Assembly: GCA_903945435.1 (NCBI GenBank)
Contig: CAJAVM010000001.1
Span: forward strand, 73,071 to 137,070
Direction: 5' to 3'
Source: an uncultured bacterium
GTDB taxonomy: Bacteria; Patescibacteriota; Patescibacteriia; Patescibacteriales; UBA12465
Length of the DNA: 64,000 nucleotides
Positions 2,847 through 58,772 of this stretch are shown here, one piece after another. The notes below the pieces were generated by a model, which worked only from the letters and a program-made list of their open reading frames with translations, was not told the origin of the DNA and did no database searches. How positions within the stretch are numbered: position 1 is the first letter of the stretch; each line of letters starts with the position of its first letter. The translations under genes and the position numbers were made by a program.

Positions 2847-4667
2847 TTATCTTTTTAATATTTTTACAAAAGTCTCTGGCGGAATTTCAACGCTCCCCTT
2901 ACCAGCGGCCATCATTTTCTTTTTACCTTTTTTTTGTTTTTCTAAAAGTTTACGTTTTCGAGAAACATCACCTCCATATAATTTAGCGGTCACATCTTTT
3001 CTCATAGCTGATAATTTTTCAGCCGCAATAATTTTTGCGCCAATAGCTGCTTGGATTTTAACAGCAAACATCTGTCTAGATAAACTATTCTTTAGAATGT
3101 CTACTATCTCACGACCTTCTCGATTAGCGTCATCACGATAAACGATTGTGGCTAAGGCTTCAATAATATCTTCCGCTACTAAAATATCCATTTTTACAAC
3201 ATCAGCTGGACGATAATCTAAATATTCGTAATTAATTGAAGCGTAACCAGCGGATACACTTTTTATCTTATCATAAAAATCAGTTAAAATCGCCGATAAA
3301 GGAATTTCATAATGTAGAATAACACGACTATCTTCACCTTCAGCAGAAATATATTCTGTATTCTTATAGATTCCCCGTTTATCTTGAGCAAGTTTAATAA
3401 TATTCCCCATGTAGAATTTAGGGCTAACAATATCAAGCGATACCCACGGTTCTTCAATCACTTCAATATTATTTTGTTCTGGCAATCTTTGTGGAGTTCT
3501 AATAATTGTTTCCTCACCATTAGTTTTTAGAACCTTATAGGCAACACTGGGAATAGTTACAATTAAATCTAAGTTATATTCTCGACGTAATCTTTCTTGA
3601 AATACCTCTAGATGTAGAAGTCCTAAAAATCCACAACGGAACCCGAACCCTAAAGCATCAGATCTTTCTGGTTCATATGATAGAGCGGCATCATTTAATT
3701 TTAATTTTTCCATTGCCTCTCTTAATTCTTTAAAATCACTACCTTCACGCGGAAAAATACCAGCAAAAACCATTGGTTTTACCTCTTTATAGCCTGGCAA
3801 AGTTTCAATTTCATCAAATCCTAAATTAGCTCCGGAAACTAAAGTATCACCAACGCGACAATCAGCAACTTGCTTAAAGCCAGTTACTACATAACCAATC
3901 TGGCCAGGTCTCAGTTCCCCCGTTGATACATAACCTGGGCGGAAAATTCCACAATCAAGAACTTCACTATCAGCCCGAACAGAGGCCAATTTTATTTTAT
4001 CGCCTTTTTTAATTACACCATTAAAAACTCGGATATAAGCAACTACTCCGCGATAAGTATCATATTTAGAATCAAAAATTAAGGCGCGAGAATAATTTAT
4101 AGCACTTAATATCTCAGGCTCTTTAGGTGGCTCACTACGACTAATAATTTCATCAAGAATCGCTGCCACCCCTTCGCCAGTCTTACCAGAAGTACAAAAT
4201 ATTTCCTCTTCTTTACAACCCAAAAGTTTAATAATTTCTCTTTTAGTTTTAGAGACATCGGCCGCTGGTAAATCTATTTTATTTACTACCGGAATAATAG
4301 TTAGATTTTGCTCTAAAGCTAAATATAAATTTGCCAAAGTCTGAGCCTGGATTCCTTGAGTACAGTCTACTAAAAGCAAGGCTGTTTCTACAGCTGCTAA
4401 GGAGCGTGATACCTCATAAGAAAAATCTACATGGCCAGGGGTATCTATCAAATTCAAATTATACCCTTTGTATTCCATGCTTACCGGGGTAAGTTTAATA
4501 GTAATTCCTCTTTCTCTTTCAATATCCATCCCATCCAATAACTGCGCTTTCATGTTTCTTTTTTCAACTGTTCCGGTAATTTCAAGCATGCGATCGGCTA
4601 GGGTTGATTTACCGTGATCGATGTGAGCAATAATAGAAAAATTTCTAATTTTATTTATATCTGACAT
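2847..4667 (-). CDS. lepA: Elongation factor 4 (LepA)
   Basis: 606 aa. GTPase motifs AHIDHGKST, DTPGH and NKID, with a LepA-type C-terminal region. Confidence 0.95.
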   Translation of the reverse strand: MSDINKIRNFSIIAHIDHGKSTLADRMLEITGTVEKRNMKAQLLDGMDIERERGITIKLTPVSMEYKGYNLNLIDTPGHVDFSYEVSRSLAAVETALLLVDCTQGIQAQTLANLYLALEQNLTIIPVVNKIDLPAADVSKTKREIIKLLGCKEEEIFCTSGKTGEGVAAILDEIISRSEPPKEPEILSAINYSRALIFDSKYDTYRGVVAYIRVFNGVIKKGDKIKLASVRADSEVLDCGIFRPGYVSTGELRPGQIGYVVTGFKQVADCRVGDTLVSGANLGFDEIETLPGYKEVKPMVFAGIFPREGSDFKELREAMEKLKLNDAALSYEPERSDALGFGFRCGFLGLLHLEVFQERLRREYNLDLIVTIPSVAYKVLKTNGEETIIRTPQRLPEQNNIEVIEEPWVSLDIVSPKFYMGNIIKLAQDKRGIYKNTEYISAEGEDSRVILHYEIPLSAILTDFYDKIKSVSAGYASINYEYLDYRPADVVKMDILVAEDIIEALATIVYRDDANREGREIVDILKNSLSRQMFAVKIQAAIGAKIIAAEKLSAMRKDVTAKLYGGDVSRKRKLLEKQKKGKKKMMAAGKGSVEIPPETFVKILKR

Positions 4668-35503: not shown

Positions 35504-35576
35504 GGGCCCTTAGCTCATCTGGTAGAGCACCTGCTTTGCAAGCAGGGGGTGGCAGGTTCGAGTCCTGTAGGGTCCA
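35504..35576 (+). tRNA. tRNA-Ala (UGC)
   Basis: Hand-folded 73-nt cloverleaf. Acceptor GGGCCCU/AGGGUCC includes the G3:U70 alanine identity pair. Anticodon loop CUUUGCAAG region, T-loop GGUUCGAGUCC. No encoded CCA. Confidence 0.95.
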
Positions 35577-37504: not shown

Positions 37505-38494
37505 TTAATACCCTAATTCTATGATTTTATTTATCAATTGTTTATAGCTTAAACCCGTATCCATCATAAGCATGGGAAACATGGAGATATCGGTAAATCC
37601 AGGCAAAGTATTAATTTCATTTAAATAAATTTTTCCATCATGTAAAAAGAAGTCGATGCGGGAAAATCCTTGGCAGTTAAATAAATGATAGGCCTTAGTA
37701 GCAAGCTCTTGAACCTGTGCAATTTGCTTAGGGCTAATATCAGCCGGAATAACAGCTTGAGCCTGACCCAACTTATATTTATCCTCATAATTATAAAAAT
37801 CTTTTGCTAGCCTCAACTCACCTGGACGAGAAACTAATAAAGTCTGATTACCTAAAACCGCAACCTCTATTTCTTTTGGACTCTTTAAGCCCTGTTCAAT
37901 AACTAATTTGGAGTCGTGCTTCTTAGCTAAATTAATTGCCTTTGCCAAATCTTCAATTTTATCAACTTTAGTGATTCCAACCGATGAACCGGAATTGGCT
38001 GGTTTAACATACCAAGGCAGGGGCAAATTTTTTACTATATCACTAAGAGTATCGGCAATTTCATTTTTCGTTTGACGTTTAAAATCAACTACGCGATAGG
38101 CAACCTGATTAATTTTTGATGAACAGAGTAAATCTTTAAATACTGCCTTGTCCATACAAAGAGCCGAGCCTAACACGCGACAGCCACAATATTTAATTTT
38201 TTGACTTTCAAATATAGCCTGAAGTACACCATCCTCGCCATATTTACCATGAGTCATGAGTAAAGCGATATCAAACGTCTTCGTAAAATCTTCAATTTTT
38301 AATTGATATCCTTTCCCGACGACTAGCTTATTAATATCTTTTACTTTATAAAAAAGACTATCTTTCTTATTCCAAAAAACTAAAATCAATTCGTATTTTT
38401 TATAATCAAAATTTTTAACAACATTCTTGGCAGAAACAATTGAAACGTCTGATTCATTTCCTAGCCCACCAAAAAATAAGGCAACTTTTTTCAT
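37505..38494 (-). CDS. ddl: D-alanine--D-alanine ligase
   Basis: 329 aa. N-terminal ALFFGGLGNESDVS, an ATP-grasp core, and a C-terminal EINTLPGFT motif. Confidence 0.9.
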   Translation of the reverse strand: MKKVALFFGGLGNESDVSIVSAKNVVKNFDYKKYELILVFWNKKDSLFYKVKDINKLVVGKGYQLKIEDFTKTFDIALLMTHGKYGEDGVLQAIFESQKIKYCGCRVLGSALCMDKAVFKDLLCSSKINQVAYRVVDFKRQTKNEIADTLSDIVKNLPLPWYVKPANSGSSVGITKVDKIEDLAKAINLAKKHDSKLVIEQGLKSPKEIEVAVLGNQTLLVSRPGELRLAKDFYNYEDKYKLGQAQAVIPADISPKQIAQVQELATKAYHLFNCQGFSRIDFFLHDGKIYLNEINTLPGFTDISMFPMLMMDTGLSYKQLINKIIELGY

Positions 38495-38513
38495 ATATTT
38501 TTATTATAAATGT

Positions 38514-38522
38514 ATTTTAGCA
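38514..38522 (-). promoter_or_regulatory. Extended -10 element (TGCTAAAAT) upstream of ddl
   Basis: The complement of 38514-38522 reads TGCTAAAAT, about 20 nt upstream of the ddl ATG. The same 9-mer precedes the gene at 51122, and the KH-gene promoter has the same TGC-TAAAAT element. Confidence 0.45.
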
Positions 38523-38578
38523 AAAAATAAGTTTTATTTATACAAGGACTTCTCCATCAGCCCTGTTGATAAATCCTC

Positions 38579-38607
38579 TTGATTCTTTTTATTCTTTTAT
38601 TTAATAT
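38579..38607 (+). promoter_or_regulatory. Sigma70-type promoter at the head of the ddl-polA gap (TTGATT, 17-nt spacer, TAATAT)
   Basis: TTGATT at 38579-38584, TAATAT at 38602-38607. No annotated gene lies downstream before polA. Confidence 0.5.
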
Positions 38608-38631
38608 AACAACATACCAAAGCTACAGAAC

Positions 38632-38934
38632 ATGATGACAAAAGTGTTTTTGGTCTTGATTCTGAGTTTCGGTCCGCTCTCACAAGTTAAGTATCTGGAT
38701 ACATCCCTTAAAAGCCTCGTGCTATTACAAGCGGACTTCCAGGAAGTTGATTTTCCGGAAATAATCGGTCTTGTACCGACCATTCCCACAACACTTAACG
38801 TTGTTACTCAAGCGGCCCCACTTTTTGCCGGGGCTATACCACATCTGTTTTTTTTACTCACAGAAAAGTTGGCGTATCAAAGGCAAAAGTACGAACTCAG
38901 AGGTATAATAGAAGAGGAAATATTATACCTATGA
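38632..38934 (+). CDS. Doubtful 100-aa ORF with a hydrophobic N-terminus; the frame stays open past its TGA
   Basis: ORF-track entry. First-codon-position G is about 28%, which is coding-like. No SD, though SD motifs are rare throughout this window. It is the only ORF in the window that ends in TGA. No recognisable family. Confidence 0.25.
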   Translation: MMTKVFLVLILSFGPLSQVKYLDTSLKSLVLLQADFQEVDFPEIIGLVPTIPTTLNVVTQAAPLFAGAIPHLFFLLTEKLAYQRQKYELRGIIEEEILYL

Positions 38935-39065
38935 CAATGTTATCCTCGGATTAAAGATTTCTTTAATCGTAGTACCTTCTTAGTCTCATCAAGAGACGCA
39001 CAAAACATTATGGACCTTCAATCACAAGACAGGGTCCTGTACAAAAAACTAAAAAGCTCTAAACC

Positions 39066-39096
39066 AAAAAGCGCCGTCAACCTACGAGCGCTTTTT
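39066..39096 (+). terminator. Possible intrinsic terminator (AAAAAGCGC, 13-nt loop, GCGCTTTTT)
   Basis: Only 4 G:C pairs plus A:U pairs and a long loop, so it is weak. It lies 73 nt upstream of the polA ATG. Confidence 0.4.
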
Positions 39097-39168
39097 ACTT
39101 GGTCAAAAATAAGAAAACCCCGTTTTAGTCAAATAGAAATTCTTAAGACTATATGATAAACTAATATT

Positions 39169-41916
39169 ATGTCTAAAACTAAACCAAAACTTATTATCAT
39201 TGATGGAAATGCGATTATTCACCGCAGTTTTCATGCCCTTCCACCAACCCTCAGAACTAAGGATGGGGTTTTAGTTAATGCGGTCTATGGCTTTACCTCT
39301 TTCTTATTAAAATCCTTAAACGAGTTTCATCCGGAATATGTAATATTAACCTTAGATAAAGCTGGTAAAACTTTTAGACATGAGGCTTATGCGGAATATA
39401 AAGCGACTAGGGTTAAAGCGCCTGATGAATTATACGAACAGATTCCGCTCGTTAAACGTATCGCCGAAGTTTTTGATATCCCAATTTTTGAAAAAACTGG
39501 TTTTGAAGCCGATGATTTAATTGGAACCCTTTGCAAACAAGCGGAAAAGGAAAAAAACTTAGAAACCATTATCATGACTGGCGATATGGACACCCTCCAA
39601 CTAGTTAGCGAGAAAACAAAAGTTTATACCATGAGCCGTGGCTTATCAGATAGCGTTTTATACGATGCTGATAAAATTAAAGAGAGATATAATTTAACGC
39701 CTGAGCAAGTAATTGATTACAAAGCTTTACGTGGCGACCCAAGCGATAACATTCCTGGCGTTAGAGGAATCGGTGAAAAAACAGCAGTTGAGCTGTTAGT
39801 AGACTTCAAGGATTTAGATGGAGTATATAAAGCAGCTGAGAAAAATGATAAAAAAATAAAACCTCGAACCATAGAATTACTAACCACTTCTCGAGAAAAT
39901 GCATTTTTAAGTAAAGAATTAGCAACTATTGATTGCAATGCGCCAATTGAGCTCTCTTTGGAAAAGGCGCGTTTCGCAACTTTTAATTTAGACAAAGTTT
40001 TAAGTATATTTAGTGAATTTGAATTTAGATCACTTCTTGGAAAAGTTAAGGAGGTTCGAGATAGATTAGAGAAAGCACATCAAGGAGGCGAAGCAGGAGC
40101 GGAAGTAGTTGAACAGAAAATTGAAAAACGTCGTCAAGAAACTAATTATACTTTTATTAAAACGGAGACTGAATTTACAGATTTTTGTTTAAATTTAAGT
40201 AAGGCAAAAGAATTTGCCTTCAAAACTGAAGCTTCCGATACTAATCCTCTCACGGCCGAAATTTTAGGAATGTCATATTGTATAAAAGAAGGTGAGGCAT
40301 ATTTCGCAACTATTAATAAGGAACGTTTAGCAAAATTAAAACCTATTTTTGAAAATGAAAATATTAAAAAAACTGGTCATAATATAAAATTTGACTGGCG
40401 CATTTTAAATAAATTAGGAATCAATCTTCAGGGAATATATTTTGATGTCATGATTGCTTCATATTTACTCAATCCCGGAGAAAGGCGACATGATTTAGAT
40501 GCGCTCGCTTTTTCTGAATTAGGAATAGAAAAAATAACTTCTAAAAATATCCAAGCCGAAGAACCTAAACAATTAAGTTTAGACTTTAGCGGACCTGACC
40601 CAGAAAAATTAAGTTTATTTGCCTGTGAAAATGCTGATTTAATAAAACAATTAGAAGAGATATTAAATAAAAAATTAAAAGAACTAGAGCTAGCTGATGT
40701 TTTTAATAAAATAGAGATGCCTCTCACTTCTATTCTTGGTGAAATGGAAAATCACGGAGTGAGAATAGCAATGGCTCCTCTAAATAAGCTAGATAAAGAA
40801 GTAAAAATAAAAATTAAAAAGCTAGAAAAAGAAATTCATAAATTAGCTGGTAGTGATTTTAATATTAATTCAACCAAACAACTCAAGGAAGTTTTATTTA
40901 CTACTTTAGAAATTCCAACTGATGGTTTAAAGAAAACAAAAACCGGATTTTCAACCGCTGAAGATGAACTAGAAAAATTAAAGAACTTACATCCGATTAT
41001 TATTTTATTACAAGAATACCGAGAATTAAATAAGCTAGAAACAACTTATTTAAATGCTTTACCAAAAATGATAAATCCAGAAACCGGAAAGATTCATACT
41101 AATTTTAATCAAACGGTCGCTGCAACCGGAAGGCTTTCTTCTAATGAACCGAATTTACAAAATATTCCTACTAGAACTGAAGAGGGTAGACGAATTAGAG
41201 AGGCTTTTGTAGCTGATGATGGATATAAATTAATTGGTTTTGATTATTCGCAAATTGAACTACGTCTTGCGGCTCATATGTCTAAAGACGCTGGGATGAT
41301 AGCTGCTTTTAATTCTGGAGAAGATATTCACAGTGCAACAGCTGCGGGAATTAATGGCGTTAGCCTTAAAGAAGTTACCAAAGAAATGCGCCGCGAAGCT
41401 AAAGCGGTTAACTTTGGTATTCTATATGGACAAGGCGCACATGGCTTAAGCCAGGGGGCAGGAATTTCCTATTCTGAAGCTGGCCAATTTATTAAAAAAT
41501 ATTTTGAAACTTATCCGGGAATTAAAAAAATGATTGATGGTTTTATTAAACAGGCCCGTGAAGAAGGCTATGCAATTACCATGTTTGGACGTCGTCGTCC
41601 TTTACCTGATATGGAATCGACTATTCCCTTTGTGAAAAAAAGTGCGGAACGCATGGCAATCAATACTCCCGTTCAAGGTTCGGCAGCTGATTTAATAAAA
41701 ATGGCCATGATTCAAATTTCAGAAATGATTGGAAATAAACAGGATGAAATTCGCATGCTTTTACAAGTTCATGATGAATTGATTTTTGAAATTAAAGAGG
41801 ATAAGATACAATCTTACCTACCAAAAATAAGAGAAATCATGCAAGATGTAGTAAAATTGAAAGTTCCGATTACAGTTGATGAGCATACTGGCGATAACTG
41901 GGGCGAACTTAAATAA
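39169..41916 (+). CDS. polA: DNA polymerase I
   Basis: 915 aa. 5' nuclease domain (LIIIDGNAIIHRSFHA, GDPSDNIPGV). Pol motifs A (DYSQIELR), B (RREAKAVNFGILYG) and C (QVHDEL). The 3'-5' exo motifs are partly degenerate. Confidence 0.95.
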   Translation: MSKTKPKLIIIDGNAIIHRSFHALPPTLRTKDGVLVNAVYGFTSFLLKSLNEFHPEYVILTLDKAGKTFRHEAYAEYKATRVKAPDELYEQIPLVKRIAEVFDIPIFEKTGFEADDLIGTLCKQAEKEKNLETIIMTGDMDTLQLVSEKTKVYTMSRGLSDSVLYDADKIKERYNLTPEQVIDYKALRGDPSDNIPGVRGIGEKTAVELLVDFKDLDGVYKAAEKNDKKIKPRTIELLTTSRENAFLSKELATIDCNAPIELSLEKARFATFNLDKVLSIFSEFEFRSLLGKVKEVRDRLEKAHQGGEAGAEVVEQKIEKRRQETNYTFIKTETEFTDFCLNLSKAKEFAFKTEASDTNPLTAEILGMSYCIKEGEAYFATINKERLAKLKPIFENENIKKTGHNIKFDWRILNKLGINLQGIYFDVMIASYLLNPGERRHDLDALAFSELGIEKITSKNIQAEEPKQLSLDFSGPDPEKLSLFACENADLIKQLEEILNKKLKELELADVFNKIEMPLTSILGEMENHGVRIAMAPLNKLDKEVKIKIKKLEKEIHKLAGSDFNINSTKQLKEVLFTTLEIPTDGLKKTKTGFSTAEDELEKLKNLHPIIILLQEYRELNKLETTYLNALPKMINPETGKIHTNFNQTVAATGRLSSNEPNLQNIPTRTEEGRRIREAFVADDGYKLIGFDYSQIELRLAAHMSKDAGMIAAFNSGEDIHSATAAGINGVSLKEVTKEMRREAKAVNFGILYGQGAHGLSQGAGISYSEAGQFIKKYFETYPGIKKMIDGFIKQAREEGYAITMFGRRRPLPDMESTIPFVKKSAERMAINTPVQGSAADLIKMAMIQISEMIGNKQDEIRMLLQVHDELIFEIKEDKIQSYLPKIREIMQDVVKLKVPITVDEHTGDNWGELK

Positions 41917-41926
41917 AACTAAAACA

Positions 41927-43255
41927 ATGAAAACCAAATCAAAAAATCAGATTACTAAAATTGCTCTTTTAGGACTAGGTTTAGATAACCTGGCTCTTTT
42001 AGAATTATTAGACGCTAATAATGCTCCAGCTGAAGTTACTATTTGTGATTTTAGAGATAAAGATAAATTACCAAAAATAAAAATAAAAAATCTAACAATA
42101 AATTATCGACTAGGCGAAAGCTTTAACAAAAATTTAGGAGATTTTTCTTTATTATTTCGTTCTCCCGGTTGGCCAGTTAATTGCCCAGGGATTTATGAAG
42201 CTTTAAAAAATAAAATCACCAAACTATCTAGCCCTTTAAACTTATTTTTTAATCTTGTTCCAACTAAAAACATAATCGGCATAACCGGAACCAAGGGAAA
42301 AGGAACGACCGCAACTTTAATTTATAAAATTCTATTAGCTAATAAAAAAACTTCCGGAAAAAATGTTTTTTTGGGCGGAAACATTGGAATCACCCCACTT
42401 TCATTTTTAAATAAAATTAAGCCTGATGATTACGTTGTTTTAGAATTATCGAGCTTTCAACTTGAAGACTTAGAATATTCTCCAAAAATTTCAGTGATAA
42501 CCAATTTATTTAAGGAACATCTCGCTCCCGCCGACCCTAATAATCCTAATTTCCACTCATCAATAAATAAATATTGGAAGGCAAAATTAAATATCGCCAA
42601 GAATCAAGAAAATAAACATTTAATAGCTAACGAATCTTTAAGAAAAATATTAACTAAAGAAAACCCTCGGGGAAAAGTAATTTATTTTTCCGATTGCAGC
42701 CTACCTTCAAAACTAACCGGTAATTATAATCGTCAAAATATTGCCGCCGCCGTTGAAGTTGCTAAATTATTAAAAATAAAACCTGAGATATATAAAAAAG
42801 TAATCGCTCGGTTTGGAAATTTAGAACATCGCCTAGAATTAGTTGCGGAAATAAATAAAATAAAATATTTTGATAATAGTTTTTCGACTACCCCTGAAAG
42901 TACTGCTTTAGATTTAGAGTCTTTCAACGTTCCAATTGTCCAAATTGCTGGCGGCGCCGATAAGGGCGCAGAATTTAAAAACCTCGCCAAAGTAATTAAG
43001 GAAAAAACTTCTTTTTTAATCTTACTTCCAGGACATGGGTCCGATAGAATTAAAAGTGAACTTAAAAAAATTAATTTTCCAAATAATAAGTTAGCTCTAA
43101 CAAGTGGTATGGAAGAGGCGGTTAAAATTTCCAAACAAAAAGCAACCCCCGGTAACGTCGTTTTACTATCAACCGCTTGTGCTAGTTTCGGAATATTTAA
43201 AAATTATAAAGAAAGAGGTGACCTGTTTAAAAAATATGTCAGACAAACAAAATAA
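41927..43255 (+). CDS. murD: UDP-N-acetylmuramoylalanine--D-glutamate ligase
   Basis: P-loop GITGTKGKGTT and a Mur ligase C-terminal domain. I prefer the ATG at 41927 (MKTKSKNQ...), just after the polA stop, over the track start at 41876 inside polA. Confidence 0.8.
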   Translation: MKTKSKNQITKIALLGLGLDNLALLELLDANNAPAEVTICDFRDKDKLPKIKIKNLTINYRLGESFNKNLGDFSLLFRSPGWPVNCPGIYEALKNKITKLSSPLNLFFNLVPTKNIIGITGTKGKGTTATLIYKILLANKKTSGKNVFLGGNIGITPLSFLNKIKPDDYVVLELSSFQLEDLEYSPKISVITNLFKEHLAPADPNNPNFHSSINKYWKAKLNIAKNQENKHLIANESLRKILTKENPRGKVIYFSDCSLPSKLTGNYNRQNIAAAVEVAKLLKIKPEIYKKVIARFGNLEHRLELVAEINKIKYFDNSFSTTPESTALDLESFNVPIVQIAGGADKGAEFKNLAKVIKEKTSFLILLPGHGSDRIKSELKKINFPNNKLALTSGMEEAVKISKQKATPGNVVLLSTACASFGIFKNYKERGDLFKKYVRQTK

Positions 43256-45172: not shown

Positions 45173-45246
45173 GGGCAATTAGCTCAGTTGGTTAGAGCGC
45201 AACACTGATAATGTTGAGGTCGGAGGTTCGAATCCTCCATTGCCCA
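45173..45246 (+). tRNA. tRNA-Ile (GAU)
   Basis: 74-nt cloverleaf. Acceptor GGGCAAU/AUUGCCC, anticodon arm CAACA-CUGAUAA-UGUUG, T-arm GGAGG-UUCGAAU-CCUCC. Confidence 0.95.
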
Positions 45247-45274
45247 CTTTAGCCTGATAAAAGGTAAAATTTAT

Positions 45275-45347
45275 AGCGGGATAGAGCAGTTGGCAGCTCG
45301 CCAGGCCCATAACCTGGAGGTCGTCGGTTCGAGTCCGACTCCCGCAA
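45275..45347 (+). tRNA. Initiator-type tRNA-Met (CAU)
   Basis: 73 nt and closely parallel to E. coli tRNA-fMet (GCGGG...GAGCAG...AGCUCG...CAUAACC...AGGUCGUCGGUUC...CCCGCAA). It has an unpaired 1:72 (A.A) and A11:U24. The anticodon stem has only 2 of the 3 hallmark G:C pairs, and position 33 is C. Confidence 0.85.
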
Positions 45348-45366
45348 CTAAAAACTTTAACATCGG

Positions 45367-45438
45367 GCCTCGGTAGCTCAGTGGTAGAGCAAAGGATTGA
45401 AAATCCTTGTGTCGTCAGTTCGATTCTGACCCGGGGCA
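45367..45438 (+). tRNA. tRNA-Phe (GAA)
   Basis: 72-nt cloverleaf. Acceptor GCCUCGG/CCGGGGC, anticodon arm AAGGA-UUGAAAA-UCCUU. Confidence 0.93.
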
Positions 45439-45484
45439 CAGAAAAAGCAAGGTATTCCGTAGTTCCGGCGGATTATTTTTTTAT

Positions 45485-45559
45485 CGGGGTGTGGCCCAGT
45501 TGGTCTAAGGCGTCTGGTTTGGGACCAGAAGATCGAGAGTTCGAATCTCTCCACCCCGA
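45485..45559 (+). tRNA. tRNA-Pro (UGG)
   Basis: 75-nt cloverleaf. Acceptor CGGGGUG/CACCCCG, anticodon arm UCUGG-UUUGGGA-CCAGA (G37). Confidence 0.93.
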
Positions 45560-58463: not shown

Positions 58464-58537
58464 GCGCTCGTAGCTCAACTGGATAGAGTACTTGGCTTCG
58501 GACCAAGGGGTTGCAGGTTCAAATCCTGCCGGGCGCA
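58464..58537 (+). tRNA. tRNA-Arg (UCG)
   Basis: 74-nt cloverleaf. Acceptor GCGCUCG/CGGGCGC, anticodon arm CUUGG-CUUCGGA-CCAAG. Confidence 0.93.
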
Positions 58538-58561
58538 CATATCCGGATTTTTCCGGTGTTA

Positions 58562-58635
58562 GGCTGGGTAGCTCAGCTGGTTAGAGCGTAGCACTCATAA
58601 CGCTAAGGTCGAGGGTTCGAGCCCCTCCCCCGCCA
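58562..58635 (+). tRNA. tRNA with CAU anticodon (elongator Met, or Ile2 if C34 is lysidinylated)
   Basis: 74-nt cloverleaf with anticodon loop CUCAUAA. It has mismatches U4.C69 in the acceptor stem and A31.C39 in the anticodon stem. Confidence 0.8.
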
Positions 58636-58640
58636 CTTAT

Positions 58641-58668
58641 TTGACAATATTTTTTTAATGTTTACAAT
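58641..58668 (+). promoter_or_regulatory. Promoter-like element between two tRNA genes (TTGACA, 16-nt spacer, TACAAT)
   Basis: TTGACA at 58641-58646 and TACAAT at 58663-58668, about 30 nt upstream of tRNA-Lys. Confidence 0.45.
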
Positions 58669-58699
58669 GTAAAGGTAGACTTCGGCTTTTAGCCGTAAT

Positions 58700-58772
58700 G
58701 CGCTGTTAGCTCAGTTGGTAGAGCAGCTCCCTCTTAAGGAGACGGTCGCTGGTTCGAATCCAGCACGGCGCA
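58700..58772 (+). tRNA. tRNA-Lys (CUU)
   Basis: 73-nt cloverleaf. Acceptor GCGCUGU/ACGGCGC, anticodon loop CUCUUAA, T-arm GCUGG-UUCGAAU-CCAGC. Confidence 0.93.

Follow-up and report, generated by a model that had tools for sequence, protein, structure and literature searches.

Organization of the ddl-polA region

We analyzed a stretch of 64,000 nucleotides (here referred to as the window) from an uncultured Falkowbacteria (CPR) bacterium. The region of interest is a gap of 674 nt (38495-39168), flanked by the minus-strand ddl (37505-38494) and the plus-strand polA (39169-41916). When ORFs of at least 110 aa and tRNAs were counted as covered sequence, this gap was the largest uncovered stretch of the window, in which uncovered stretches had a median size of 75 nt. 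Since ddl and polA are divergent, two promoter regions simply account for part of it. The G+C content was 45.0% at positions 38701-38760 and 48.3% at positions 38761-38820, compared with window means of 34.9% for covered and 29.7% for uncovered sequence. Both the exceptional size of the gap and the GC enrichment of the two 60-nt blocks had been pointed out in an initial annotation of the window and were borne out. The same annotation had described the gap as gene-free, which is not correct: it contains a 100-codon ORF (38632-38934) that public assemblies carry as an annotated gene. The original observation of the gap was confirmed in part. The features outside the RNA helices were the following:

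38566-38595, plus strand: upstream promoter-like site (TTGATA, 18-nt spacer, TATTCT), including the block CTGTTGATAA
38579-38607, plus strand: main promoter, read from the sequence (-35 TTGATT at 38579-38584, T-rich spacer of 17 nt, -10 TAATAT at 38602-38607)
38614-38631, plus strand: short 5' leader CAUACCAAAGCUACAGAAC without a Shine-Dalgarno sequence
38632-38934, plus strand: 100-codon ORF MMTKVFLVLILSFGPLSQ...LRGIIEEEILYL and stop, open in all copies, about 60% of the unit
39066-39096, plus strand: intrinsic terminator AAAAAGCGCCGU...ACG.AGCGCUUUUU, from fold and conservation
39127-39160, plus strand: conserved block TAGTCAAATAGAAATT...TATATGATAAA directly 5' of polA

Homologous copies of the element

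Twelve distinct copies of the element were obtained from related Falkowbacteria contigs. All of them were located just upstream of polA, and the polA genes of these loci were 66-100% identical to that of the window, so that the conservation in relatives sharing the polA synteny, on which the initial annotation had made its proposal depend, was found. Each locus carried a single copy in a fixed chromosomal position, and the nucleotide divergence among the copies was high (about 30-55%). Seven of the 12 copies came via protein databases, which hold intact ORFs only, and the others via polA or a DNA pattern. The DNA pattern scan of metagenomes yielded three true loci and one chance match (L016); a scan of genome contigs with N-terminal peptide patterns yielded one locus only. 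The central part of the element was exchanged mosaically between genomes with polA 98% identical, which suggests a hot spot of recombination at this locus. A phage or mobile-element origin was rejected, since blastn against 50,697 phage records gave no match to the element and one copy was present per locus.

Promoters, leader and terminator

The main promoter was present as initially claimed (TTGATT, 17 nt, TAATAT) and its arrangement was kept in all 12 homologues, most of which have TTGAC(C)-17-TAATAT. The 64-kb window contains a single occurrence of it, compared with 0 expected by chance. Its absence from the list of the consensus scanner is explained by the fact that just 8 of 12 positions match. 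The upstream site at 38566-38595, which the scanner did report (9 of 12 consensus positions), contains a block (CTGTTGAYAA / CTGTTAATAA / CTGTGAATAA) kept in 12/12 copies and may have a promoter-like function as well. From the position of the main promoter, transcription would start near 38614. The leader contains a block conserved among the copies (CAUNACCAAA). A start without a Shine-Dalgarno sequence is normal for this genome, because only one of the 41 long genes of the window has such a motif. A leader hairpin around the AUG, formed with 38653-38658, was considered and rejected (82% paired, mostly G-U, not significant).

At the other end of the putative unit, a hairpin and a T-run at 39066-39096 were part of the window's fold. 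A terminator of this type was found in 11 of the 12 copies; the sequence of L025 stops at the contig end before it. In the alignment 89.7% of its cells were paired and the inner stem covaried, and the feature initially noted as a weak hairpin is consequently a real and conserved one. It was missed by the terminator scanner because the loop was counted as >8 nt. Conservation of promoter and terminator thus showed the boundaries of the predicted unit.

The block at 39127-39160 was kept in every copy abutting polA except L023, which retains just the distal ATGATAAACTAATATT. It was also present in L011, which has no recognisable 3' domain of the element. This block is likely polA's own promoter and would lie outside the element.

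A conserved open reading frame

The ORF at 38632-38934 is annotated by public gene callers as a hypothetical protein. Its frame (+1) contained no stop in any of the 12 copies, compared with 38-98 stops (summed) in each of the other five frames. The number of distinct stop positions was 0 in frame +1 and 34 in each of frames +2 and +3. For the copies found without a protein search, 0 stop positions were counted vs 20 and 17 (P about 1e-8). The start ATG was kept in 12/12 copies and the indels were multiples of 3 on an alignment built from nucleotides only. Near-identity of the copies does not explain the open frame, because they differ at about 30-55% of nucleotides. A frame that stays open across diverged homologues with such indels is what is generally expected of a coding gene. 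The length of the ORF ranged from 95 to 119 codons across the DNA copies, and in public databases the family comprised about 21 protein clusters of 87-147 aa spanning the full profile length.

Purifying selection on amino acids, the other general mark of a coding gene, was not seen. The pN/pS of the ORF was 0.6-1.0 and indistinguishable from that of frames +2 and +3, compared with 0.04-0.2 for polA. Synonymous sites of the ORF evolved 2-3 times slower than those of polA: between L015 and L020 the ORF had a pN of 0.157 and a pS of 0.179 with a polA pS of 0.62, and between the window and L006 the pS values were 0.38 (ORF) and 0.60 (polA). Codon periodicity was weak and was found at codons 6-17 (p=0.004) and 23-80 (p=0.0075). 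AlphaFold2 (16 sequences) gave no confident fold for the ORF product (pLDDT 50.8, pTM 0.12). Together with a pN/pS like that of out-of-frame sequence, this indicates that the peptide may be irrelevant as a molecule. Taken together, the comparison of the copies showed selection for an open frame and a near absence of constraint at the amino-acid level. The initial annotation had stated that a clear protein homologue would reclassify the segment as a gene or pseudogene; this applies by half only, because homologous ORFs do exist but show almost no amino-acid constraint.

An exception was the hydrophobic N-terminus with its weak codon periodicity. Of the parts of a Sec-type signal peptide (a positive n-region, an h-region of 7-15 hydrophobic residues and a c-region with small residues at -3 and -1), it has conserved n- and h-regions (M-x-K, followed by FLVLILSF) with coding-type periodicity, and Leu codons TTG and CTT were swapped within the hydrophobic stretch. 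This stretch is 9-10 residues long, and no clear canonical signal-peptidase site (AxA-type) was visible when read from the sequence. The peptide motifs LILSF, PxFAGA, RQK, KLxG and GII each coincided with a helix strand. Since this holds for all conserved motifs, most of what looks like conservation of the protein is conservation of the RNA.

The end of the ORF shifts relative to the conserved hairpins. L015 and L017 have the stop in a hairpin loop, L020 has it in the loop of H4, and in the window it comes just past H4; it was never found upstream of the 3' strand of H1. The hairpins persist whether they are inside or beyond the ORF. Two further coding possibilities were rejected. Reassignment or read-through of UGA would open 73 codons past the TGA of the ORF, and TGA stops were found in 0 of 41 genes of the window; however, the extension was not conserved and relatives use TGA stops (6 of 72 genes). 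An antisense gene was considered in frame -2, which was stop-poor in close relatives only.

Conserved RNA helices

The following helices were analyzed, where type A denotes the four closest copies:

38663-38669, plus strand: H1 5' strand UGAGUUU, long-range helix closing a domain of ~240 nt, pairs with 38893-38899
38765-38779, plus strand: H2 hairpin UCGGU, loop CUUGU, ACCGA, from covariation
38815-38834, plus strand: H3 hairpin GCCCC (38815-38819) / GGGGC (38830-38834), loop contains the H5 5' strand
38822-38829, plus strand: H5 5' strand UUUUUGCC, in the H3 loop, pairs with 38882-38889
38882-38889, plus strand: H5 3' strand GGCAAAAG, RQK motif of the conceptual protein
38893-38899, plus strand: H1 3' strand GAACUCA, K/E-L part of the conceptual protein
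38902-38929, plus strand: H4 hairpin GGUAUAAUA, purine-rich loop GAAGAGGAAA, UAUUAUACC; the stop UGA (38932-38934) follows directly
38949-38968, plus strand: 3' hairpin a, GAUUAAAG, loop AUUU, CUUUAAUC; two pairs covary in the four type-A copies
38983-38997, plus strand: 3' hairpin b, GUCUC, loop AUCAA, GAGAC; stem invariant and loop variable in the four type-A copies
39012-39037, plus strand: 3' hairpin c, GGACC...GGUCC, from the window's own fold

The helix set scored over the family consisted of the long-range helix H1, the hairpin/pseudoknot pair, the stop-codon hairpin and the terminator. On a structure-blind MAFFT alignment of 12 sequences, 89.6% of cells were paired, compared with 81.2 +/- 0.9 in shuffled alignments (0/500 as high), and 16 pairs were changed on both sides, compared with 9.3 +/- 1.6 (0/500); as the 12 DNA copies are related sequences of one narrow clade, these shuffle-based significances are inflated to an unquantified degree. 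The covariation score was 0.315 vs 0.168, and slid controls were 40-50% paired. The same helices were recovered on an alignment derived solely from the protein alignment. G-U pairs were frequent and A-C pairs rare, which identifies the plus strand as the folding strand, and the window copy folded better than its shuffles on both strands (z = -4.0 for plus and -5.9 for minus). Compensatory changes above controls, as generally expected of a structured RNA, were thus found: several helices exceeded the shuffled and slid controls well, which is the covariation support that the initial annotation had called for, and showed that the predicted helices are maintained by compensatory mutation.

The helix located at 38814-38835 in the initial annotation is real and corresponds to H3. 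All cells (100%) were paired in 12 sequences and three of its five pairs covaried; at facing third codon positions, the counts were seven for C:G, four for G:C and one for G:U. H5, which joins the H3 loop to a distal strand, had 95.7% of cells paired and three pairs changed on both sides, with double changes in L009 (GCA/UGC) and in L024 (UUCUU..GCU with AGCAAGAA). From this arrangement, H3 and H5 would form either an H-type pseudoknot or two alternative folds. In H4, six of nine pairs were changed on both sides family-wide and three among type-A copies (e.g. GGUAUAGUGG/CCACUAUACC in L013), and the encoded amino acids differ completely among copies (ILYL vs NHYTV).

H1 was found in the window's minimum-free-energy fold and by RNAalifold on the codon alignment. 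Over 12 sequences 89% of its cells were paired and two pairs were changed on both sides, e.g. A-U to G-C; at the site of its 3' strand Pro (CCC) occurs only with Gly (GGU) at codon 13. The weakest core helix was H2 with 77% of cells paired; its inner three pairs were conserved and one covaried (C-G to U-A in two sequences). With two and one covarying pairs, respectively, the support for H1 and H2 is modest.

The hairpins downstream of the ORF, all of which had been noticed in the initial annotation, held up among close relatives and not in the family as a whole. The 8-bp stem of hairpin a covaries among the four type-A copies but was not conserved in type-B copies. Hairpin b was kept unchanged in the stem in the four type-A copies only. 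Hairpin c was present in the window's fold and showed one compensatory change (GGACU...AGUCC in L006, identified by eye in the alignment); it is supported by close relatives only, because RNAalifold on the four type-A copies did not predict it. One initially proposed helix had to be given up: GTCCGCT (38672-38678) with AGCGGAC (38730-38736) was not conserved, with 42-54% of cells paired and no covariation. A GGGCC/GGCCC pairing suggested by RNAalifold on four close copies was likewise rejected, as other lineages, checked by eye, do not support it. Long invariant runs at 38705-38800 were also discarded as proof of RNA-only constraint, since the first three sequences compared were merely close relatives.

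Database searches

At gathering thresholds, Rfam 15 identified eight tRNAs and nothing else in the whole window. When 38400-39250 was searched at E<=10, the top match was PreQ1 with 20.8 bits vs a threshold of 39, and the divergent copies in L015 and L021 gave terminator-like fragments only. No Rfam family, including RNase P RNA, tmRNA, SRP RNA, 6S and riboswitches, matched the element. The initial impression that no known RNA class fits was therefore upheld by the Rfam results for the window copy and these two divergent copies. ARAGORN detected neither a tRNA nor a tmRNA at 38400-39300. Pfam-A gave 0 matches for the ORF product (P0001) and all 16 family members, NCBIfam gave 0 matches, and the best match to PDB chain profiles had an E of 0.82. 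Full-text searches of the literature gave no description of the element.

Interpretation of the element

The element is too complex to be described as a non-coding structured RNA or as just a gene. It is best read as a putative new clade-restricted RNA which is both structured and translated. The initial proposal that GC enrichment signals a structured RNA was supported in its core idea; it missed the selected ORF that makes up about 60% of the unit. We consider it somewhat more probable than not that the element, as a structured mRNA or dual-function RNA, encodes a small, rapidly evolving protein whose hydrophobic N-terminus resembles a signal peptide. Transcription of the unit, translation of the ORF, export of the peptide and a role of the fold are what we infer from the sequences. 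The element would be an independent transcription unit, reaching from the promoter at 38579-38607 to the terminator at 39066-39096 and giving an RNA of ~480 nt. H1 would close the ~240-nt domain, and inside it the H3 loop would pair with the distal H5 strand as a pseudoknot or switch. The H4 hairpin would follow at the end of the ORF and then the lineage-specific 3' hairpins. Starting 18 nt downstream of the presumed 5' end, the 100-codon frame extends across the entire H1 domain in every copy. Because ribosomes must unwind H1, H3/H5 and H4, the fold would act in cis on the translation or stability of its own transcript. A purely cis role has no obvious need for a pseudoknot and a modular 3' domain of 160 nt.

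These last features would fit more easily with a trans-acting or protein-binding structured RNA, a new large non-coding class in which the fold is the product and translation an accessory. Translation might then guard the transcript from Rho or RNases where any 5'-proximal AUG initiates, might reshape the fold, or might anchor the RNA at the membrane via the nascent hydrophobic N-terminus. The constraint at the nucleotide level, equal at synonymous and non-synonymous sites, would be explained in this way, as would the identity of every conserved peptide motif with a helix strand, the hairpins that persist inside or beyond the ORF, the pseudoknot-like H3/H5 pair with the modular 3' domain, the very strong, unique and conserved promoter typical of RNA genes and the lack of a predicted protein fold. 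However, ATG and open frame are kept without exception, the coding-type periodicity in the N-terminal 17 codons is unexpected for a by-product peptide, and neither an Rfam relative nor a partner protein or target is known; we regard this explanation as possible though on the unlikely side. Rather unlikely in our view, but related, is an undescribed class of large structured CPR RNA for whose working translation is obligatory. Here the passage of the ribosome through the pseudoknotted domain closed by H1, tethering to the membrane by the N-terminus, or both would be required, and the peptide sequence would be almost free to drift, with the frame and not the protein being selected.

If the element were simply a small hypothetical-protein gene, its GC content would reflect coding sequence and the helices would be incidental mRNA structure. 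The ORF is indeed present, called by gene finders and kept open, about 21 protein clusters make up its family, weak codon periodicity is present, and starts without a Shine-Dalgarno sequence are normal in this genome. Yet incidental structure would not give compensatory double changes in four helices, and the perfect C:G / G:C / G:U covariation at facing third codon positions, a pS down to a third of the polA value and a structure conserved past the stop codon would be left unexplained. As the pN/pS of 0.6-1.0 (vs 0.04-0.2 for polA) and a G+C content of 45-48%, above the coding mean of 35%, do not fit either, we consider an ordinary gene improbable. The converse, a purely non-coding RNA with an ORF that arose by chance or by ascertainment like spurious ORF families, draws on the seven of 12 copies that came via databases of intact ORFs, on the peptide motifs equal to helix strands and on the missing fold and domain. 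It was already disfavoured and is very improbable, because the copies found by polA or the DNA pattern also had 0 stop positions vs 20 and 17, the frame is open despite about 30-55% nucleotide divergence, and indels in multiples of 3, the ATG in 12/12 copies and the codon periodicity all point to a selected frame. We give hardly any credence to a type I toxin-antitoxin-like mRNA resembling hok/sok, that is, a structured mRNA with long-range pairing for a small hydrophobic peptide. It would account for the long-range helix with covariation within the coding region, for the hydrophobic N-terminus and for a minus strand that folds well too (z = -5.9). The ORF of 95-119 codons, with a hydrophobic stretch of just 9-10 residues and a long polar remainder, speaks against it, as do the wobble pattern, which supports the plus strand only, and the fact that each locus has one copy whose chromosomal position is fixed; inspection of the alignments brought no conserved antisense promoter to notice. 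The defining features of such systems, a toxin of less than about 60 aa with a full transmembrane helix and an overlapping antisense RNA gene, were not seen in the ORF and the alignments.

Comparison with known RNAs

Dual-function small RNAs include SgrS/SgrT, RNAIII/delta-haemolysin, SR1/SR1P and Spot 42/SpfP. Like these, the element combines selected RNA structure and a small ORF on one putative transcript, in its own promoter-to-terminator unit. Its ORF is much longer, however (100 codons, about 60%), and overlaps the structured core, and the element is without a known base-pairing target or trans activity, Rfam showing no homology. The mRNAs of the hok family have covariation in the coding region and long-range pairing. 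In the element, too, coupled covariations reach into the coding region and ribosomes would have to open long-range pairing, but it does not encode a short transmembrane toxin, no antisense RNA was found, its 5' and 3' ends are not brought together by the pairing, and the element is chromosomal, single-copy and fixed beside polA.

With tmRNA (SsrA; 300-400 nt) the element shares a structured RNA with a predicted pseudoknot and an internal frame to be read by ribosomes. It differs by the absence of a tRNA-like domain, of an ARAGORN or Rfam match and of a conserved C-terminal tag, and by a tenfold longer frame that starts with an ATG of its own. OLE, GOLLD, ROOL, raiA and HEARO resemble it as GC-enriched long intergenic regions with their own promoter and terminator and with covarying helices, but none of their Rfam models matches the element, and we know of no conserved open reading frame in these RNAs. 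AntiFam-type spurious protein families are translations of conserved RNAs. The conserved peptide motifs found here are likewise the conceptual translation of helix strands; unlike in such families, the frame is under selection (0 stop positions vs 34 and 34) and the N-terminus shows codon periodicity.

Significance

The genomes of CPR bacteria (Patescibacteria) are small and poorly understood, and to our knowledge almost no CPR-specific RNAs have been described. Judged by sequence comparison, the combination of kept folds and a kept open frame matches no known RNA or protein family. The same nucleotides are under strong selection for RNA structure and for an open frame and under almost none for amino acids. 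As a candidate new RNA family, the element lends itself to modelling and to searches for further members. It is also a warning for catalogues of small proteins, as the 'conserved protein motifs' are here complementary RNA strands. Furthermore, the question of why a structured RNA has to be translated can be approached with this system; control in cis of a small exported protein, remodelling assisted by ribosomes and co-translational localisation are possible reasons. If translation were indeed obligatory for the working of the RNA, the element would be an RNA gene of which the frame, and not the protein, is selected.

The intergenic region between ddl and polA

The 674 nt between ddl and polA (38495-39168), singled out in the initial annotation as a gene-free gap, formed the longest uncovered stretch of the window. 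Uncovered stretches, i.e. those outside any ORF of at least 110 aa or tRNA, had a median length of 75 nt. The two genes are divergently oriented around the gap:

37505-38494, minus strand: ddl (Pfam)
38579-39096, plus strand: predicted transcription unit with an RNA of about 480 nt, here named the element
38579-38607, plus strand: promoter TTGATT-17-TAATAT
38632-38934, plus strand: ORF of 100 codons
39066-39096, plus strand: hairpin and T-run
39169-41916, plus strand: polA (Pfam)

The promoter and the terminal hairpin proposed initially were both present, and the G+C content of the two 60-nt blocks counted by hand was indeed 45.0% and 48.3%. Covered and uncovered sequence of the window averaged 34.9% and 29.7%, respectively. 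The gap is not gene-free: it holds the ORF, which had been overlooked and which public gene callers, working on the source contig of 119 kb, list as a hypothetical protein. The Rfam search proposed at that stage returned nothing at the gap, neither at gathering thresholds nor at E<=10, and ARAGORN found no tRNA or tmRNA there. Rfam matches within the window were limited to tRNAs, namely clusters of four (45173-45559) and three genes (58464-58772) and a single gene (35504-35576). No relative of the ORF was found in Pfam, NCBIfam or PDB.

Relatives and synteny

Only two close homologues of the ORF were found among 5.8 billion proteins. Profile searches, first of 1.84 billion cluster representatives and then of the full collection, enlarged the family to about 21 clusters, all of 87-147 aa and covering the full profile length. 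Contig titles and polA annotations place the members in Candidatus Falkowbacteria of the CPR/Patescibacteria lineage. No description of the element was found in the literature.

Twelve distinct DNA copies (loci with L numbers) were recovered through look-ups of family members, look-ups of polA relatives irrespective of the ORF, and a scan with a DNA pattern; seven were reached via protein databases. The element was present once per locus and at the same position in 12/12 copies, the order being the ddl side on the opposite strand, element, terminator, a conserved block and polA. The opposite-strand genes upstream were either ddl alone or ddl with a Mur-ligase gene and an alpha/beta-hydrolase gene. 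All 12 copies kept the promoter, most commonly as TTGAC(C)-17-TAATAT; the 64-kb window contains a single occurrence of the promoter pattern. The terminator, of the AAAGCGC...GCGCTTTTT type, was found in 11 of the 12, i.e. in every copy reaching far enough (L025 stops at the contig end). In the related locus L011, with a polA 87% identical, no 3' domain could be recognised over the 319 nt covered, and the distribution of the element among relatives may therefore be patchy.

The conserved block (39127-39160, TAGTCAAATAGAAATT...TATATGATAAA) adjoins the polA start on its upstream side and is probably a promoter or operator of polA. It was kept in every relative with an abutting polA, with only the distal part retained in L023, and was present in L011 as well.

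The neighbouring ddl varied by lineage. A Ddl of 329 aa was directly adjacent in the window, L023 and L024; other lineages carried a Ddl of 356-393 aa together with the Mur-ligase and alpha/beta-hydrolase genes. The genes compared were those of the window (37505-38494), L006 (28-1098), L015 (5371-6549) and L020 (967-2145). The Ddl proteins of the window and L006 shared just 33% identity and are thus non-orthologous. On the other side, the gene order polA, Mur-ligase, Asp/Glu-racemase was kept in all relatives. The Mur-ligase-like ORF of the window (41876-43255) overlaps the polA end (41916) by about 40 nt if called from the first TTG or ATG. In L003, L004, L005, L008 and the contigs of the protein family members P0136, P0139 and P0142 the element lies on very short contigs ending nearby (730-1900 nt), which suggests assembly breaks from strain-level variation around the locus.

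Selection for an open reading frame

Frame +1 contained no stop codon in 12/12 copies. The other five frames contained 38-98 each, summed over copies, and shuffled sequences 6-7 per copy and frame. Counted as distinct stop-bearing alignment positions, frame +1 had none and frames +2 and +3 had 34 each. Because seven copies came via protein databases, the test was repeated on those obtained free of protein searches, giving 0 positions versus 20 and 17 (Poisson P about 1e-8). Indels within the ORF were multiples of three in a nucleotide-only alignment, and the ATG was conserved. Of 41 long genes of the window (ORFs of at least 150 aa), one had a Shine-Dalgarno-like motif in the 20 nt before its start. 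Initiation in this genome appears to proceed without Shine-Dalgarno pairing, so its lack at the ORF is uninformative.

The 41 long ORFs ended in TAA (39) or TAG (2), never in TGA. The small ORF stops at TGA (38932-38934), after which the frame is open for 73 further codons to 39154. Recoding of this TGA was considered and rejected; the situation looks like chance, as 6/72 genes in relatives end in TGA and the extension is not conserved.

Weak constraint on the amino acid sequence

Between the window and L006, polA was 92.6% identical with 50, 21 and 235 differences at codon positions 1, 2 and 3, and the ORF 59% identical with 25, 26 and 34. Across pairs, pN/pS (simple Nei-Gojobori proportions, saturated for distant pairs) was 0.6-1.0 for the ORF versus 0.04-0.2 for polA, and the ORF values did not differ from those in frames +2 and +3. 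AlphaFold2 with 16 sequences gave a pLDDT of 50.8 and a pTM of 0.12 for the predicted product. The sole protein-like signal was a weak three-base periodicity of conservation, clearest at codons 6-17 (hydrophobic FLVLILSFGP with a nearly invariant second position; p=0.004), present at codons 23-80 (p=0.0075) and missing at codons 81-110. Leu TTG/CTT swaps within the hydrophobic stretch pointed in the same direction. The amino acid sequence is thus barely under selection.

Nucleotide constraint and covarying helices

In close pairs, ORF sites of either class, synonymous or not, evolved far more slowly than synonymous sites of polA.

Table. Substitution proportions in close pairs
L015-L020: ORF pN 0.157; ORF pS 0.179; polA pS 0.62
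L020-L022: ORF pN 0.158; ORF pS 0.214; polA pS 0.68
Window-L006: ORF pN 0.28; ORF pS 0.38; polA pS 0.60

The conserved 'protein motifs' of the ORF turned out to be complementary RNA strands. They were read from the codon alignment, which is blind to RNA structure because it derives from the protein alignment. The helices, all on the plus strand, are:

H1: UGAGUUU 38663-69 ('LSF') with GAACUCA 38893-99 ('K/E-L')
H2: hairpin 38765-38779
H3: GCCCC 38815-19 with GGGGC 38830-34, all five positions paired in 12/12 copies
H5: H3-loop strand UUUUUGCC 38822-29 ('FA') with GGCAAAAG 38882-89 ('RQK')
H4: GGUAUAAUA 38902-10 with UAUUAUACC 38921-29

H1 changed from A-U to G-C via G-U; at the protein level, Pro was confined to copies with Gly at codon 13. 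Facing third codon positions in H3 were C:G in seven copies, G:C in four and G:U in one, and the flanking residues swapped (A..A, V..T, T..V). Double changes were found in H5 (L009, GCA/UGC; L024, UUCUU..GCU with AGCAAGAA). H4 was GGUAUAGUGG/CCACUAUACC in L013 and GGUAUGACA/UGUUAUACC in L021, with entirely different encoded residues.

The five helices and the terminator were scored on a separate structure-blind MAFFT alignment (A8) of the whole unit. Paired cells amounted to 89.6% (shuffled 81.2 +/- 0.9%), pairs changed on both sides to 16 (9.3 +/- 1.6) and the covariation score to 0.315 (0.168), each reached by 0/500 shuffles, a significance that is overstated since the 12 copies are few and phylogenetically related. 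When the partners were slid by 1-3 columns, 40-50% of cells remained paired and the covariation score fell to 0.07-0.11. H1 and H2 were modestly supported. Four control helices scored no better than shuffles across the family: a leader hairpin, two 3' hairpins and the helix 38672-78/38730-36, which had been proposed from the window alone. Family-wide, G-U pairs were common and A-C pairs rare, which identifies the plus strand as the folded one, in agreement with promoter and terminator. The window copy itself folded better than shuffles on both strands (z = -4.0 plus, -5.9 minus).

Architecture and probable exchange

The domain closed by H1 spans about 240 nt and comprises H2, the H3/H5 pair and a core that varies. 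Since H3 and H5 abut without overlap, they can form a putative H-type pseudoknot (first loop 2 nt, no second, third 47 nt) or alternative folds. H4 directly follows the H1 domain, with the stop codon of the window copy immediately 3' of it.

Two forms of the 3' part were distinguished, type A (window, L006, L013, L021) and type B (L009, L015, L017, L020, L022, L025), which carries covarying hairpins of its own, e.g. one reading GGCGU-AACUAUA-ACGCC or GACGU...ACGUC. Among the hairpins suggested initially, 38949-68 covaried and 38983-97 varied in the loop but not in the stem in the four type-A copies, a behaviour that did not extend to the family-wide tally. The hairpin 39012-37 was part of the window's own fold and showed one compensatory change in L006, but was not predicted on the four-copy type-A alignment. 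The stop codon shifts relative to the hairpins: L015 and L017 have it in a hairpin loop, L020 in the loop of H4, and L009 ahead of the hairpin. The ORF runs through the 3' strand of H1 in every copy.

The polA genes of L015 and L017 were 98% identical (pS 0.26), yet their elements differed by pN 0.35 and pS 0.43. Both ends of the elements (L015 9390-9749, L017 2397-2738) were nearly identical and the central 65 or so codons of different type. This pattern points to a putative swap of the domain core between lineages by mosaic or recombinational exchange.

A second small unit

Three lineages (L006, L009, L017) carried an extra insert between element and polA. Its length is about 3 kb in the two with both ends covered, L006 and L017; the L009 contig stops before polA. 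Each insert contained a second small unit:

L006, 4140-4640
L009, 895-1400
L017, about 2908-3400

In promoter type (TTGACC-17-TAATAT or TAAGAT) and leader (CATAACCAAAA) it agrees with the element. Its ORF, of 73-75 codons, has a hydrophobic N-terminus (MKKFLCILVFGSFSLA) resembling that of the element; hairpins, among them GGTTTCAG...CTGAAACC, are conserved, and the unit has a terminator to itself. It is followed by an ORF of 53 aa and an AAA_11/AAA_12 helicase on the opposite strand. The 5' part matched the element profile weakly (nhmmer, E = 0.018), and the unit may be a paralogous 'structured small-ORF' unit.

Interpretation

The structured RNA proposed in the initial annotation stood as far as covarying helices and constrained synonymous sites are concerned; its non-coding nature did not, and selection on the frame excludes a plain non-coding RNA. 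A plain protein gene is equally excluded, by the covarying helices, the constraint on synonymous sites, the drift of the amino acids and the structure that extends beyond the stop. We somewhat favour a structured mRNA or dual-function RNA; the peptide it encodes would be small, fast-evolving and probably exported or directed to the membrane, and the fold would act on the translation or stability of the transcript that carries it. We infer transcription, translation and export, as well as what the fold does. We regard as less probable the main rival, in which the RNA fold itself is what functions and being translated is an accessory requirement.

The element resembles dual-function small RNAs in logic, but no Rfam family matches it. 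It shares covariation inside the coding region and long-range pairing with hok-family mRNAs, but has no short transmembrane toxin, and no antisense gene was noticed in the alignments. A candidate pseudoknot and a presumably translated frame recall tmRNA, from which it differs in having no tRNA-like domain and no Rfam or ARAGORN match. The GC-rich intergenic signature of OLE, GOLLD, ROOL and raiA is the one that led to the element, which matches none of them. We classify it as a structured RNA with a presumably translated frame, representing a new family limited to a narrow clade of Falkowbacteria.
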